Of a stretch of 10,826 bases of DNA, positions 5,346-10,193 are shown piece after piece (position 1 is the first letter of the stretch; each line of letters opens with the position of its first letter). The notes beneath the pieces were generated by a model. That model searched no databases and was not told where the DNA came from. It saw nothing but the letters and a program-made list of their open reading frames with translations. The stretch is from the IMG/VR virus record IMGVR_UViG_3300012983_002979, one strand, 5' to 3'. This stretch comes from a virus (taxonomy: Duplodnaviria; Heunggongvirae; Uroviricota; Caudoviricetes). The position numbers and the translations under genes were made by a program.

Positions 5346-5424
5346 GGAGACTCATCCTCAGACCGGCAAGCCAGGAAAAGGTCGCAGGAAAAACCGGCTT
5401 ACTGTTTGTTTTTTTATATTTTAC

Positions 5425-5528
5425 TGTTCACCTCTGTTCATCATAAGAAAAAAGATAAGTAATACAGTAAGTTAAAGGGTGAACAATCGCAGTAATGACT
5501 GTTCACCGTCTGTTCACCACTGTTCACC
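5425..5528. repeat. Iteron cluster of TGTTCACC octamers; ori-like replication origin
   Basis: TGTTCACC at 5425, 5500, 5511, 5521 (the last three ~10-11 bp apart), a variant TGTTCATC at 5436, and an inverted GGTGAACA at 5478. The same octamer recurs in the crr-like repeats after alpha, ~4.9 kb away. P4 alpha binds TGTTCACC iterons in ori and crr. Confidence 0.5.
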
Positions 5529-5807
5529 CGTTGATGGGCTTTTTGTGCTGTTTACTACTGTTTGTTTTTATTAATTTGCCGGGAATGAATAAGAAAAAAC
5601 GATTTGTATTTCACTATAAAAATTACGAATTGCTTTAAGTGGCTTTAAATGACTTTAAGTGGAGATGAACAAAAAACACACAAGCATTGTAAGGCTGCCG
5701 GAACAAATCCCCCCTGTTGCGTCTGCTGAAAATATTCACAAAATAAAGCGCTACCCGAAGCCGGACGGACTTATCCGGTGCTGTATGGACATTAACGAGG
5801 TAGCCCG

Positions 5808-6074
5808 ATGCAAGCTGTTTTTTCTTCCCCGTCTCCCGCCCCTGTGACGCCACTGATGCCGCTGCCGGACATCACGCAGGAGCGTTTTTTACGTCTGCCG
5901 GAAGTGATGCACCTGTGCGGCCTGTCACGCTCGACCATCTATGAACTCATCCGTAAGGGGGAATTTCCGCCGCAGGTGAGTCTTGGCGGTAAAAATGTGG
6001 CCTGGCTGCACTCTGAAGTCACCGCATGGATGGCCGGCCGCATTGCCGGACGCAAACGGGGGTATGACGCATGA
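5808..6074 (+). CDS. vis: Vis/AlpA-family HTH regulator, excision and late-gene control (88 aa)
   Basis: [50 protein letters not shown] matches the AlpA-type HTH pattern. 88 aa from the ATG at 5808 (GAGG 8 nt upstream); an alternative start at 5856 would give ~72 aa. Confidence 0.75.
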
Positions 6075-6108
6075 TGATGCCCGCTCTGCAAAAAGTCCCT
6101 TTTTCTGG

Positions 6109-6138
6109 CTTGCCTTTTTCCGGCATTTGCGGATATAG
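6109..6138 (+). promoter_or_regulatory. Candidate sigma70 promoter (PLE-like) for the immunity/left operon
   Basis: TTGCCT (6109-6114), 18-bp spacer, TATAGT (6133-6138), ~30 bp upstream of the seqA-like element. Pattern match only. Confidence 0.3.
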
Positions 6139-6329
6139 TTTTTCCGCTGTCGCAAAATCGGCAGCCGGGCGTAGGAACCCGTGTAACTCGAAGGCGACAT
6201 ATGACGCGCCATGCGTCTTTTTTTGTGTCGCAATCAACGCCACAGAGCGCCAGATTATGGTGTGGCGTGTGGTTTGCCGTGCAGGTATGATCCTGTTCGC
6301 AATCGCATGTTATGCCACTGAGTCAATGG

Positions 6330-6400
6330 TAGCTCAGGCGGGGCAGCCTCCGGGCTGGCCGGTATTCTTCGAGGCCGGTATTCCTACCCCCGTCTGGGCT
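6330..6400 (+). ncRNA. cI: CI-like immunity RNA region (seqB-like core); boundaries approximate
   Basis: The central segment 6367-6387 (CTTCGAGGCCGGTATTCCTAC) is complementary to the bipartite GTAGGAA...CTCGAAG(G) motifs at 6171-6194 and 6414-6453, as in P4 seqA/seqB/seqC. RNA ends cannot be set from sequence. Confidence 0.35.
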
Positions 6401-6463
6401 ATCGCCATCGAGCGTAGGAACTCCGGCGATAGCAGTTATTTGCTACTCGAAGGAGACTGCCTT

Positions 6464-6661
6464 ATGGCTACAACCCTTACCCCCTCACACCCTGAATTTG
6501 TCTTTGTGTTTGCGGCTGTCCGTCGCGCAGACCGTCATCCCCGTATCTGCATGCTTCGCACCGTCGCCGGTGATGAACGCAGCGCCCGCCGTTCCCTTGT
6601 CCGTGACTATGTGCTCTCCCTTGCTGCCCGTCTGCCGGTGGTGGAGGTGTCCCGTGCGTAA
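6464..6661 (+). CDS. Small protein (65 aa) in the eta-like position; SD overlapped by the seqC-like element
   Basis: ATG at 6464 preceded by AAGGAG (6450-6455). It is in frame with the 196-aa track ORF, whose upstream part spans the cI region and is unlikely to be coding. Stop overlaps the next gene's start region. Confidence 0.45.
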
Positions 6662-6941
6662 TAAAAAAGCCCCTCAGACCGTCTCAGCGCGTCATGACGC
6701 CCGTGAACACCTCAGCATTGAGGCTTACCATAAGCTCAACCGCGCCAGCGCCGTATCCCAGTTTGTTGGGGGTGATTTGATTCACCGTGAACTCTCCGGC
6801 CTGCATCAGCTCTACATTCCGCATATTTTCAGCTACCTGAATGAAGATATTGATTTTGTGCTGAATGAGCTGAAAGCCAAAGGCCTGTGCCGCGATTTTC
6901 TCGCCCAGCAGAAAGACCGGGGAGACAGGACGCATGTTTGA
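6654..6941 (+). CDS. eps: Epsilon-like protein (helper-prophage derepression), 95 aa from the GTG at 6654
   Basis: Frame of track ORF 6498..6941. GTG at 6654 with GGAGG 6 nt upstream gives 95 aa, the length I recall for P4 epsilon; upstream in-frame ATGs lie inside the preceding small gene. Stop overlaps the orf151 start (ATGTTTGA). Start choice is uncertain. Confidence 0.5.
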
Positions 6942-7389
6942 TTTTCCCCAGCCCGGTGAGATTTACCGTTCTGCCGGTTTTCCCGATGTGGCCGTGGTCG
7001 GCATTCTGGAAGACGGTATTCCGTGGGAAATGCCGTACCGCTGCCCGGAAATTGTCTGGAACCCGTACCGCCGTAAATTCAGTATCCTTGTGCGTATCCT
7101 TGGTGACGGGCGCACCACAGACATCCCGCTGGGGCGTTTTCTGCGGGAATTTACCTGTGACTGTCCTGACCTGTTCAGACGCAGCCCCGTAAACCGGCAT
7201 GCGGTACTGAAAGAAATGGCCGGAGACCCGGAATTACAGAAATGGCGGGAGAAATATCTGGATATTTACCCGCAGGACACTGTTCCGGTCAGCCGGGCGG
7301 CACCGGTGGCGCGGGAATGGCGGGAAATCCCCCGCACGGAGCCTGACCCGGAAATCACACCGGATAACAGTTACCGCAATTATCTGTAA
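6934..7389 (+). CDS. Conserved P4-family protein, orf151-like (151 aa)
   Basis: 151-aa ORF with GGAGACAGGA upstream, coupled to the preceding gene. Length and position between epsilon and alpha match P4 orf151. Confidence 0.8.
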   Translation: MFDFPQPGEIYRSAGFPDVAVVGILEDGIPWEMPYRCPEIVWNPYRRKFSILVRILGDGRTTDIPLGRFLREFTCDCPDLFRRSPVNRHAVLKEMAGDPELQKWREKYLDIYPQDTVPVSRAAPVAREWREIPRTEPDPEITPDNSYRNYL

Positions 7390-7524
7390 TTAAAAAACGA
7401 CACCCGAAAAATTAAATGTGCGTATTCGCGCAGGGATACGCACGTCTTCAGGAGACGCAGATATGCCTTATCAGTTAATGCAACCGGCACGGAATGCAGT
7501 CATCTGTCACAGGGAGGAAAGCAA

Positions 7525-7845
7525 ATGAAAACACCCTTACCGCCCGTCTTACGCGCAGCCCTTTACCGTCGCGCTGTCGCCTGTGCCTGGCTGACCGTGT
7601 GCGAACGTCAGCACCGCTACCCGCATCTCACCCTTGAATCACTGGAGGCGGCCATCGCCGCTGAGCTGGAAGGCTTTTATCTGCGCCAGCACGGTGAGGA
7701 AAAAGGGCGTCAGATAGCCTGTGCCCTGCTGGAAGATTTAATGGAATCCGGCCCCCTGAAGGCCGCGCCGTCGCTGTCCTTTCTCGGGCTGGTTGTGATG
7801 GATGAACTCTGTGCCCGTCACATAAAAGCGCCGGTACTGCACTGA
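7525..7845 (+). CDS. Conserved P4-family hypothetical protein, orf106-like (106 aa)
   Basis: 106-aa ORF with GGGAGG upstream, immediately before alpha. Confidence 0.75.
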
Positions 7846-7859
7846 AGGAGAACAACACC

Positions 7860-10193
7860 ATGAAAATGAACGTAACCGCCACCGTCAGCCATGCGCTCGG
7901 CCACTGGCCGCGTATTCTCCCGGCGCTGGGGATTCAGGTGCTGAAAAACCGTCATCAGCCCTGTCCGGTCTGTGGCGGGAGTGACCGCTTCCGTTTTGAT
8001 GACAGGGAGGGGCGCGGCACCTGGTACTGCAATCAGTGTGGTGCCGGTGACGGCCTGAAACTGGTTGAAAAGGTGTTTGGTGTTTCCCCGTCCGACGCGG
8101 CCGCAAAGGTGGCTGCCGTGACCGGCAGCCTGCCACCGGCTGACCCGGCAGTGACGACCGCCGCCGTTGCTGAAACAGACGCTGCCCGGAAGAGCGCCGC
8201 CGCACTGGCACAAACCCTGATGGCGAAAACCCGTCCCGGAACCGGTAACGCCTACCTGACCCGCAAGGGCTTTCCCGGCCGGGAATGCCGGATGCTGACC
8301 GGCACACTCAGAGCCGGTGGCGTGAGCTGGCGTGCCGGTGACCTTGTGGTGCCACTGTATGACGACAGCGGCGAACTGGTTAACCTTCAGTTAATCAGTG
8401 CTGACGGCCGTAAGCGCACCCTGAAAGGCGGACAGGTCAGGGGCACCTGTCACACCCTTGAAGGACAGAATCAGGCCGGAAAACGTCTGTGGATAGCGGA
8501 GGGATACGCGACCGCACTTACCGTACATCACCTGACCGGTGAAACGGTGATGGTGGCGCTTTCTTCCGTGAACCTCCTTTCTCTGGCCAGCCTTGCCCGG
8601 CAGAAGCATCCGGCCTGTCAGATTGTCCTTGCCGCAGACCGTGACCTCAGCGGTGACGGCCAGAAAAAAGCCGCCGCAGCCGCAGATGCGTGTGAAGGTG
8701 TTGTTGCCCTGCCGCCGGTCTTCGGTGACTGGAATGATGCCTTCACGCAGTACGGCGGGGAGGTCACCCGTAAGGCCATTTACGATGCCATCCGGCCACC
8801 GGCTGAAAGCCCGTTCGACACCATGAGCGAAGCAGAGTTTTCCGCCATGAGTACCAGCGAAAAGGCCATGCGTATCTATGAGCATTACGGCGAGGCGCTC
8901 GCGGTCGATGCCAACGGCCAGCTTCTGTCCCGCTATGAAAATGGTGTCTGGAAGGTGCTGCCGCCACAGGACTTTGCCCGGGATGTGGCCGGGCTGTTTC
9001 AGCGTCTGCGCGCGCCGTTCTCCTCCGGGAAGGTGGCCTCCGTGGTGGACACCCTGAAGCTGATTATTCCGCAGCAGGAAGCCCCCTCCCGCCGCCTGAT
9101 TGGCTTTCGTAACGGTGTGCTCGACACGCAGAACGGCACGTTCCACCCGCACAGTCCGTCACACTGGATGCGCACCCTGTGCGATGTGGATTTCACCCCG
9201 CCGGTGGACGGTGAAACGCTGGAAACCCACGCCCCCGCGTTCTGGCGCTGGCTTGACCGTGCCGCCGGTGGCCGTGCGGAAAAACGCGACGTGATTCTGG
9301 CCGCACTGTTTATGGTGCTGGCAAACCGCTACGACTGGCAGCTCTTTCTGGAGGTGACCGGTCCCGGCGGCAGCGGCAAAAGTATCATGGCCGAAATAGC
9401 CACCCTGCTGGCCGGGGAGGATAACGCCACGTCGGCCACCATCGAGACGCTGGAATCCCCGCGTGAACGTGCCGCGTTAACTGGCTTCTCACTGATACGC
9501 CTGCCGGACCAGGAAAAATGGAGCGGCGACGGTGCCGGACTCAAGGCCATCACCGGCGGCGATGCGGTGTCCGTGGACCCGAAATACCGGGATGCGTACT
9601 CCACGCATATCCCGGCGGTGATTCTGGCCGTGAACAATAACCCGATGCGCTTCACCGACCGCAGCGGCGGCGTGTCACGCCGGCGGGTGATTATTCACTT
9701 CCCGGAACAGATAGCCCCGCAGGAGCGCGACCCGCAGCTTAAGGACAAAATCACCCGCGAGCTGGCGGTCATCGTGCGTCACCTGATGCAGAAATTCAGC
9801 GACCCGATGCTCGCCCGGTCACTGCTTCAGTCCCAGCAGAACTCAGACGAGGCACTGAACATCAAACGGGATGCCGACCCGACGTTTGATTTTATCGGCT
9901 ATCTGGAAACCCTGCCGCAGACCAGCGGCATGTATATGGGGAACGCCAGTATCATCCCGCGTAATTACCGTAAATACCTCTATCACGCCTATCTGGCCTA
10001 CATGGAGGCAAACGGCTACCGGAATGTACTCAGTCTGAAAATGTTCGGGCTGGGGCTGCCGGTGATGCTGAAGGAATACGGACTGAATTACGAGAAGCGC
10101 CATACCAAACAGGGGATACAGACCAACCTGACGCTGAAAGAGGAAAGCTACGGCGACTGGCTGCCAAAATGTGACGACCCTGCAACAACCTGA
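7860..10193 (+). CDS. alpha: Alpha: bifunctional primase-helicase replication protein (777 aa)
   Basis: N-terminal zinc-binding primase motif (CPVCGGSDRFRFDD...WYCNQCG), TOPRIM-like region (LWIAEGYATALT...LAADRD), Walker A (VTGPGGSGKS) in a D5-like helicase domain. 777 aa as in P4 alpha. Confidence 0.95.
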   Translation: MKMNVTATVSHALGHWPRILPALGIQVLKNRHQPCPVCGGSDRFRFDDREGRGTWYCNQCGAGDGLKLVEKVFGVSPSDAAAKVAAVTGSLPPADPAVTTAAVAETDAARKSAAALAQTLMAKTRPGTGNAYLTRKGFPGRECRMLTGTLRAGGVSWRAGDLVVPLYDDSGELVNLQLISADGRKRTLKGGQVRGTCHTLEGQNQAGKRLWIAEGYATALTVHHLTGETVMVALSSVNLLSLASLARQKHPACQIVLAADRDLSGDGQKKAAAAADACEGVVALPPVFGDWNDAFTQYGGEVTRKAIYDAIRPPAESPFDTMSEAEFSAMSTSEKAMRIYEHYGEALAVDANGQLLSRYENGVWKVLPPQDFARDVAGLFQRLRAPFSSGKVASVVDTLKLIIPQQEAPSRRLIGFRNGVLDTQNGTFHPHSPSHWMRTLCDVDFTPPVDGETLETHAPAFWRWLDRAAGGRAEKRDVILAALFMVLANRYDWQLFLEVTGPGGSGKSIMAEIATLLAGEDNATSATIETLESPRERAALTGFSLIRLPDQEKWSGDGAGLKAITGGDAVSVDPKYRDAYSTHIPAVILAVNNNPMRFTDRSGGVSRRRVIIHFPEQIAPQERDPQLKDKITRELAVIVRHLMQKFSDPMLARSLLQSQQNSDEALNIKRDADPTFDFIGYLETLPQTSGMYMGNASIIPRNYRKYLYHAYLAYMEANGYRNVLSLKMFGLGLPVMLKEYGLNYEKRHTKQGIQTNLTLKEESYGDWLPKCDDPATT

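Follow-up and report, generated by a model that had tools for sequence, protein, structure and literature searches.

The region between positions 6071 and 6661 of this DNA carries reading frames that overlap one another as well as a series of small RNAs, which raises the question of which of these frames are genes and to which control system they belong. In this study, we compared the window (the whole stretch of viral DNA that was analysed, 10,826 nucleotides of IMG/VR record IMGVR_UViG_3300012983_002979) with bacteriophage P4 and with homologous loci. The first-pass annotation of the sequence had recognised a P4-type immunity region, which was correct, and had proposed that two small coupled ORFs of 29 and 65 amino acids flank a CI-like RNA in the positions of the P4 kil and eta genes, the 29-aa product being hydrophobic in the manner of small toxic peptides. 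Our analysis leads to a different assignment of the genes. With a probability of roughly 0.9, the stretch 6071-6661 is a P4-type immunity and early-control region in which the 65-aa ORF is kil, the 196-aa ORF that encloses it is eta and the 29-aa ORF is no gene. The region is the already described RNA-based immunity switch of P4, that is, a known system.

The element in the window is an E. coli P4-like prophage that is inserted at ssrA. The 3' end of the tmRNA gene (ssrA, 120 nt) opens the window at 1-120, the 397-aa ORF that follows it (within 1-1497) is taken to be a candidate integrase, and after the integrase the left operon of a P4-like satellite phage is complete. The insertion at ssrA presumably recalls CP4-57. 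The window and bacteriophage P4 are 95.6% identical over 5600-7400, and the gene order of P4 (orf88, eta/kil, epsilon, orf151, orf106, alpha) is matched. The octamers TGTTCACC / GGTGAACA, which are repeated at 5400-5560 of the window, correspond to the "ori type 1 repeats" annotated for P4 in NC_001609. Several complete E. coli chromosomes carry identical copies of 6000-6700, strains E21845/O/A and 14EC001 being examples. The features on which the argument is based are as follows, with the last three mapped from the annotation of P4.

5808..6074, + strand: vis/orf88, AlpA-family excisionase and regulator (Pfam Phage_AlpA, 7e-21; P4 ORF88 is annotated at the matching position)
6071..6661, + strand: eta, 196 aa (ORF listing, homology, RefSeq ORF)
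6110..6139, + strand: PLE-like constitutive promoter within eta (promoter scan)
6146..6223, + strand: SeqA / IsrK-like leader RNA (Rfam RF01394)
6201..6290, + strand: 29-aa ORF, judged a chance ORF, in frame +1 relative to eta
6322..6409, + strand: CI (C4-type) antisense immunity RNA (Rfam RF01695)
6413..6454, + strand: seqC, second CI target (sequence; repeats the seqA boxes)
6464..6661, + strand: kil, 65 aa, Icd-like (P4 identity, NF033153)
6654..6941, + strand: epsilon, helper derepression protein, 95 aa, GTG start (Pfam Derepression, 7.7e-51; P4 annotation)
6934-7389: ORF151
7525-7845: ORF106
7860-10193: alpha

The start of epsilon overlaps the end of kil and eta.

The 65-aa ORF is the Kil of P4, an Icd-like protein that is nested in eta. 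Its 65 residues are all shared with the product translated from P4 8171-8365, its residues 12-59 fit the NCBIfam family NF033153 (Icd-like) with a score of 76.1 bits, for which the cut-off is 25 (E = 1.6e-21), and it has been seen on at least 1000 contigs as an Icd-like protein. Its in-frame ATG at 6464 inside the 196-aa ORF, which the first-pass annotation had singled out as a plausible start, proved to be genuine and conserved; it is present in all 50 homologous loci, which come from many Enterobacterales genera, and the motif ahead of it is GGAG or GGAGG except in three loci, which have GGAA or GGAT. The pN/pS of kil is 0.32 in its own frame against 1.36 and 1.65 in the other two, and conservation at the three codon positions is 0.88, 0.90 and 0.71, the third being the most variable; both the pN/pS and the codon-position pattern signify purifying selection at the protein level. 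The Shine-Dalgarno sequence of kil, AAGGAG (6449-6454), overlaps the second box of seqC (6445-6452), and this arrangement is the same in all 50 loci. Since the ORF downstream of CI is kil, it does not take the eta-like place that had been proposed for it; it forms the 3' part of eta and is the first conserved translated ORF downstream of PLE. In P4, kil is reportedly the first gene after PLE to be translated. PMC10111431 is consistent with such an order without stating it. According to Forti et al. 1999, as summarised in PMC10111431, Kil is a truncated Eta that is produced from a promoter internal to eta.

The 196-aa ORF is eta, a genuine gene that contains kil. The first-pass annotation preferred the 65-aa start in its place, a choice that the comparison does not bear out, as the 196-aa ORF is eta itself and is open in 51 of 53 loci. 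Three tandem ATGs at 6071, 6074 and 6077 yield products of 196, 195 or 194 aa; the eta of P4 is three codons longer and yields 199, 198 or 197 aa from its three ATGs. The published size of Eta, which we take to be 197-199 aa, agrees with these P4 lengths. The frame is 83.9% identical to the P4 ORF, matches Pfam Phage_ASH (4e-23, residues 22-143) and phrog_6928 (8e-87), and is exactly the ORF that RefSeq annotates. Its layout is that of the P4 Eta: its start precedes PLE and is coupled to the stop of orf88/alpA, and its end is the stop of kil, so that the stop at 6659-6661 is common to both genes, and it encloses PLE, the SeqA RNA, the CI RNA, seqC and kil. The start ATGATGATG at 6071 overlaps the TGA stop of vis/alpA as ATGA, and PMC10111431 describes the same overlap for P4.

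It could be argued that only the 65-aa ORF is real and that the 196-aa ORF is an accidental upstream extension over RNA elements that happen to lack stops. No amino-acid constraint was found upstream of kil, where the pN/pS of the eta frame (0.65-1.13) is no lower than that of the other frames, and the conserved "protein" blocks of this part coincide with the RNA elements. In addition, the "protein" similarity of four loci (L057-L060) is split over two frames, with isrK and C4 above the Rfam thresholds. We nevertheless consider an accidental extension to be very unlikely. A single uninterrupted eta frame is found in 50 homologues with 38-90% amino-acid identity, and in five non-overlapping segments upstream of kil the 50 sequences contain 0 stops in the eta frame against 135 and 260 in the other two. 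Between the leader terminator and the ATG of kil lie 200 to 249 nt, with eight different lengths among the loci, and the spacer is in frame in 51 of 53 loci, in six different lengths. The same restriction is visible in the comparison with P4, in which a 9-bp indel keeps the frame and two single-base differences, +1 and -1 (6434 and 6461, 27 nt apart), change nine codons and restore it. The overlap with the vis stop and the genetics summarised in PMC10111431, in which translation of Eta prevents termination, likewise argue for a real gene. As for the +1/-1 pair at 6434/6461, it could represent either real compensating indels or errors in the P4 sequence of the 1980s.

That the 196-aa ORF is eta is not affected by the missing amino-acid constraint, because the eta of P4 is defined genetically, although it does bear on the question of whether Eta acts as a protein. 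The lack of constraint fits the published role of eta translation itself; according to PMC10111431, translation of Eta on transcripts from the upstream PLL promoter prevents their Rho-dependent termination. The chances appear to us about even that the frame of the first 131 eta codons is kept open solely for the transit of ribosomes over the immunity RNAs, with the amino-acid sequence left unconstrained. Such a transit would shield late-promoter transcripts from CI pairing and from Rho. This proposal is in agreement with a pN/pS of approximately 1 in every frame upstream of kil and with the loci that have no kil, in which the "protein" similarity splits over two frames and the RNAs are intact. 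If eta is needed only for its translation, then the conservation of the PF10554 "Ash protein family" may be that of the SeqA, CI and seqC RNAs read as protein. The match to PF10554 (Phage_ASH; 6134-6499, residues 22-143) coincides exactly with the stretch of eta in which PLE, SeqA, CI and seqC are encoded; the PGAP name "ash family protein" is attached to some members of the cluster. The N-terminal two-thirds of eta can be described as frame-constrained and not sequence-constrained, which could be useful for work on satellite-helper conflicts. In loci with a broken eta frame, isrK and C4 continue to score above their Rfam thresholds; the RNAs are the primary conserved objects of the region.

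These RNAs begin with a promoter. A promoter scan located a site at 6110-6139 (TTGCCT, an 18-nt spacer and TATAGT), the stretch is identical in the window and P4, and its P4 counterpart is taken to be PLE. The predicted transcript start, at about 6146, is the first position of the Rfam isrK model. The SeqA/IsrK RNA at 6146-6223 scores 69.4 bits against the RF01394 gathering score of 50 and folds into three hairpins, the third of which is a terminator-type stem (6203-6217) that is followed by a U-run, as found by a terminator scan. Among 44 distinct sequences, 94.9% of the cells in these helices are paired compared to 29-43% in slid controls, and compensatory changes occur in 8 of 18 pairs; none of 500 shuffles came up to the observed value. 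The RNA thus belongs to the isrK family by both its score and its three covariation-supported hairpins. In the naming used in PMC4825925 and PMC3632133, IsrK corresponds to the seqA of P4 and C4 to its CI.

A C4/CI-type RNA between the two small ORFs, as the first-pass annotation had it, is indeed present. It lies at 6322-6409 and scores 74.4 bits against the RF01695 gathering score of 45. Its seqB boxes in the CI loop, TTCCTAC (6381-6387) and CTTCGAG (6367-6373), are complementary, in this order, to the boxes GTAGGAA (6171-6177) and CTCGAAGG (6187-6194) of seqA, which are repeated in seqC as GTAGGAA (6413-6419) and CTCGAAGG (6445-6452). The assignment to the C4/CI family is based on the score above threshold together with this complementarity to an upstream and a downstream target. 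The repetition of the seqA boxes in seqC is found in all 50 loci, and the CI boxes complement both targets, seqA and seqC, in the window as well as in the 50 loci; the complementarity was established by explicit matching, as RNAduplex with the whole structured CI gave long and non-specific duplexes. The boxes of seqA, seqB and seqC covary, with 24 seqA types among the 50 loci that are always matched within a locus. In P4, the boxes are GTGAGAA and TTCACAGG, with matching changes in the P4 CI. Because both boxes differ from those of P4, the element in the window is probably heteroimmune to P4, as far as can be judged from the sequences. At least 24 combinations of CI, seqA and seqC boxes across 50 Enterobacterales loci could be a further resource for studies of the conflict between satellites and helpers; the box code and the frame constraint of eta extend known biology and open no new question. 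The two-box code is shuffled combinatorially among the loci L001-L056. The four loci L057-L060 (Pectobacterium, Brenneria, Lonsdalea) have isrK and C4 above the Rfam thresholds with a short spacer of about 25 nt between the two RNAs, no Kil homologue was found in them, and in L058 and L060 an EFASI RNA lies about 1.3 kb downstream. They represent a different architecture of the same RNA switch.

An ATG ORF of 29 aa at 6201-6290 exists, as had been noted. Most likely, as judged from the alignments, it is a spurious frame that arose by chance over a conserved regulatory RNA, and that it has any function at all is quite improbable. It lies inside eta, in another frame, over the SeqA/IsrK leader RNA and not in the position of kil, and in the P4 literature nothing else is known at this position, which is that of the leader; the frame is open only by chance in the P4 clade. 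RefSeq annotates nothing at 6201 in the identical E. coli copies. The claimed coupling with the 65-aa ORF was not found either, as 173 nt, with the CI RNA among them, separate the stop of the one (6290) from the start of the other (6464). The occurrence of the ORF does not go beyond chance. When the window is shuffled with its dinucleotides preserved, 7.2 +/- 3.0 ORFs begin with ATG, reach 29 aa or more and are preceded by an SD-like 4-mer, compared to ten in the unshuffled window, most of which are real genes. The triplet that is homologous to ATG 6201 is ATG in only 4 of 50 sequences (the window, P4, L003 and the distant L055), while elsewhere it is CAG, AAC, CGG or GAC and, in two cases, TAG. 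Across the homologues the open stretch in this frame varies from 0 to 68 codons, and the P4 version has 46 aa with a different C-terminus. The frame has a pN/pS of 0.94, and 19 in-frame stops occur among the codons compared; conservation is highest at its third codon position, which is the opposite of the coding pattern, and no coding periodicity was found. No match to the ORF was found in Pfam, NCBIfam or PHROG, and the exact peptide is absent from a collection of 15 billion proteins. Conservation at this site is therefore at the RNA level only, the outcome that the first-pass annotation had named as speaking against its own proposal.

The AAGG that was read as a Shine-Dalgarno sequence is present at 6191-6194, 6 nt before the ATG, but it is part of the CI-target box of seqA, that is, the 3' half of the variable seqA box 2. 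The purine run at this site is AAGG, CAGG, TCGG, ATGG, TTGG, ACGG or GTGG according to the immunity type, and it is not a conserved ribosome-binding site because it varies in this manner. The position of AAGG in a box that is paired by CI, together with the occurrence of the ATG in P4 and L055 as well, could suggest that the ORF encodes a small toxic hydrophobic peptide, kil-like or similar to a type I toxin, whose translation is controlled by CI pairing. Hok, Ldr, Ibs and TisB are similarly short ORFs whose ribosome-binding site, putative here, can be covered by an antisense RNA; unlike them, the 29-aa ORF has no segment of transmembrane length, no conserved start or frame and no coding signature. 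Hydrophobicity is weak in this peptide (GRAVY +0.27; the longest stretch free of charged, polar or Pro residues is 9), which does not sustain the description given in the first-pass annotation. The Kyte-Doolittle mean over 19 residues reaches 0.36 at most. For a membrane helix, the rule of thumb is a mean of about 1.6, by which the predicted peptide cannot form one, and no hydrophobic helix of membrane-spanning length (about 18-20 residues) was found in it. In addition, the ATG abuts and enters the terminator stem. Together with a start codon that is lost in 46 of 50 sequences, a P4 version that ends differently, the non-coding substitution pattern and the missing database matches, these features make a toxic peptide exceedingly improbable.

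The position of the ATG in the leader bears on a second proposal, in which the ORF is a regulatory leader ORF of the P4 clade, the loading of ribosomes melts the SeqA terminator or competes with the pairing of CI and seqA, and the peptide itself is irrelevant. ATG 6201-6203 occupies columns 56-58 of the leader RNA alignment, exactly at the 5' foot of the terminator stem. Its G (column 58) pairs with column 72, a pair that changes from G-C to C-G in 13 distinct sequences, and its U replaces, in the four sequences that bear the ATG, the A of the closing A-U pair found in most relatives. A precedent for such control could be seen in the isrK locus of Gifsy-1, which uses the short translated orf45 downstream of IsrK. 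The parallel is imperfect, as orf45 starts approximately 30 nt after the terminator (+107), whereas the 29-aa ORF starts at +56, inside it. Furthermore, the ATG is missing in 46 of 50 relatives that have the same RNA architecture, two bearers of the ATG, P4 and L003, have CAGG and TCGG, respectively, in place of the SD-like AAGG, and kil is reportedly the first gene to be translated downstream of PLE. We therefore regard a regulatory leader ORF as extremely unlikely and retain the reading of a chance frame over the leader RNA. A 36-aa ORF at 6211-6321 was rejected as well; its ATG lies in the variable terminator loop (CCATG, CCACG, CCTTG, CCAGG and others) and it has no family match. Another ATG, at 6257, shares the frame of eta and begins the old 137-aa "cI/ash" ORF. 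It lies at about +112 from the predicted PLE start, which resembles the first AUG of orf45 at +107 downstream of the Gifsy-1 IsrK, so that the two may be counterparts, and it occurs in the P4-proper subgroup only.

The mechanism that we propose for eta, kil and the RNAs follows the P4 literature, from which promoter usage, Rho termination and the toxicity of Kil are carried over to this element. The sequence comparison itself demonstrates the layout, the identity to P4, the family assignments, the coding and non-coding signatures, the covariation of the RNAs and the box code. The constitutive PLE inside eta would produce a transcript that starts with the SeqA/IsrK leader and runs through the CI RNA, which, according to the literature, would be processed out of it. 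Two short boxes of CI would then pair with the seqA of the leader as well as with seqC. Because seqC contains the ribosome-binding site of kil, pairing at seqC would mask this site and block the translation of kil. The unread RNA would be terminated by Rho inside kil, as in the literature, and the downstream replication genes would remain silent. A stretch at 6420-6540 that spans seqC and the first third of kil is rich in C and poor in G (C 31-36%, G 18-19%), a composition that would suit a Rho-utilisation site of the immunity-dependent terminator. Translation of Kil, in turn, would keep Rho off the transcript, and Kil would be toxic when overproduced, both as known from the literature. For P4, overexpression of Kil is reported to kill the cell or block its division, and translation of kil to keep Rho from terminating at timm (PMC10111431). 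Only on transcripts that come from the late promoter upstream would eta be read from ATG 6071, coupled to vis/alpA, and ribosomes over the whole eta region would allow these transcripts to escape immunity.

The closest known system is the kil/eta and CI/seqA/seqC region of P4 (Forti et al. 1999 J Bacteriol 181:5225; Sabbattini et al. 1995). The two share the gene order, the ORF sizes, Kil (65/65), Eta (84%), the three tandem ATGs, the overlap with the orf88 stop, an identical PLE and the positions of the CI and SeqA RNAs. They differ in the specificity boxes, which have changed in a compensatory manner (GTAGGAA/CTCGAAGG here, GTGAGAA/TTCACAGG in P4), and in Eta, which is three codons shorter here; the integration of the element at ssrA was also noted among the differences. 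Similarities extend to the c4-icd-ant operon of P1/P7 and the CA RNA-icd-antA operon of N15/PY54. In these, as here, an antisense RNA of the C4 family is processed from the very transcript on which it acts as a repressor, its target box and the ribosome-binding site of a small Icd-like ORF overlap, and transcription continues downstream only if this ORF is translated. The likeness to N15/PY54 is also seen in the protein, as Kil falls into NF033153 and is 44-50% identical to N15 gp32 and PY54 Icd. The C4 clan of Rfam includes a1b1 targets, and the a1b1 model overlaps isrK in related loci. Unlike in these operons, the small ORF here is nested in the long eta, which is read from a second promoter, and the downstream cargo is epsilon, orf151, cnr and alpha and not an antirepressor, so that the genes downstream of kil serve helper derepression and replication. 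The isrK-orf45-anrP locus of Gifsy-1 in Salmonella (Hershko-Shalev et al. 2016, PMC4825925) resembles the region in an IsrK-type leader with its own terminator, in transcription that reads through into a short translated ORF and an effector further downstream, and in a C4-like stable RNA (STnc1160 there) that is processed from the read-through transcript. It differs in that the short IsrK of Gifsy-1 acts in trans to activate the translation of orf45.

As the region is a textbook P4 immunity switch, it has little value for discovery, and its practical value lies in annotation. The 65-aa ORF should be named kil (Icd-like), the 196-aa ORF eta and 6146-6223 SeqA/IsrK RNA, with no gene call at 6201. 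In the identical E. coli copies, RefSeq names the whole 196-aa ORF "host cell division inhibitor Icd-like protein". The RefSeq record of P4, NC_001609, has no kil, eta or CI RNA features, and the obsolete 137-aa "cI gene product" (L001, 2155-2571) is still annotated there as "transcriptional repressor". The same label, "transcriptional repressor", is attached to PHROGs 6928 and 1743, which hold Kil and Eta homologues, and it probably derives from the obsolete P4 "cI" annotation.
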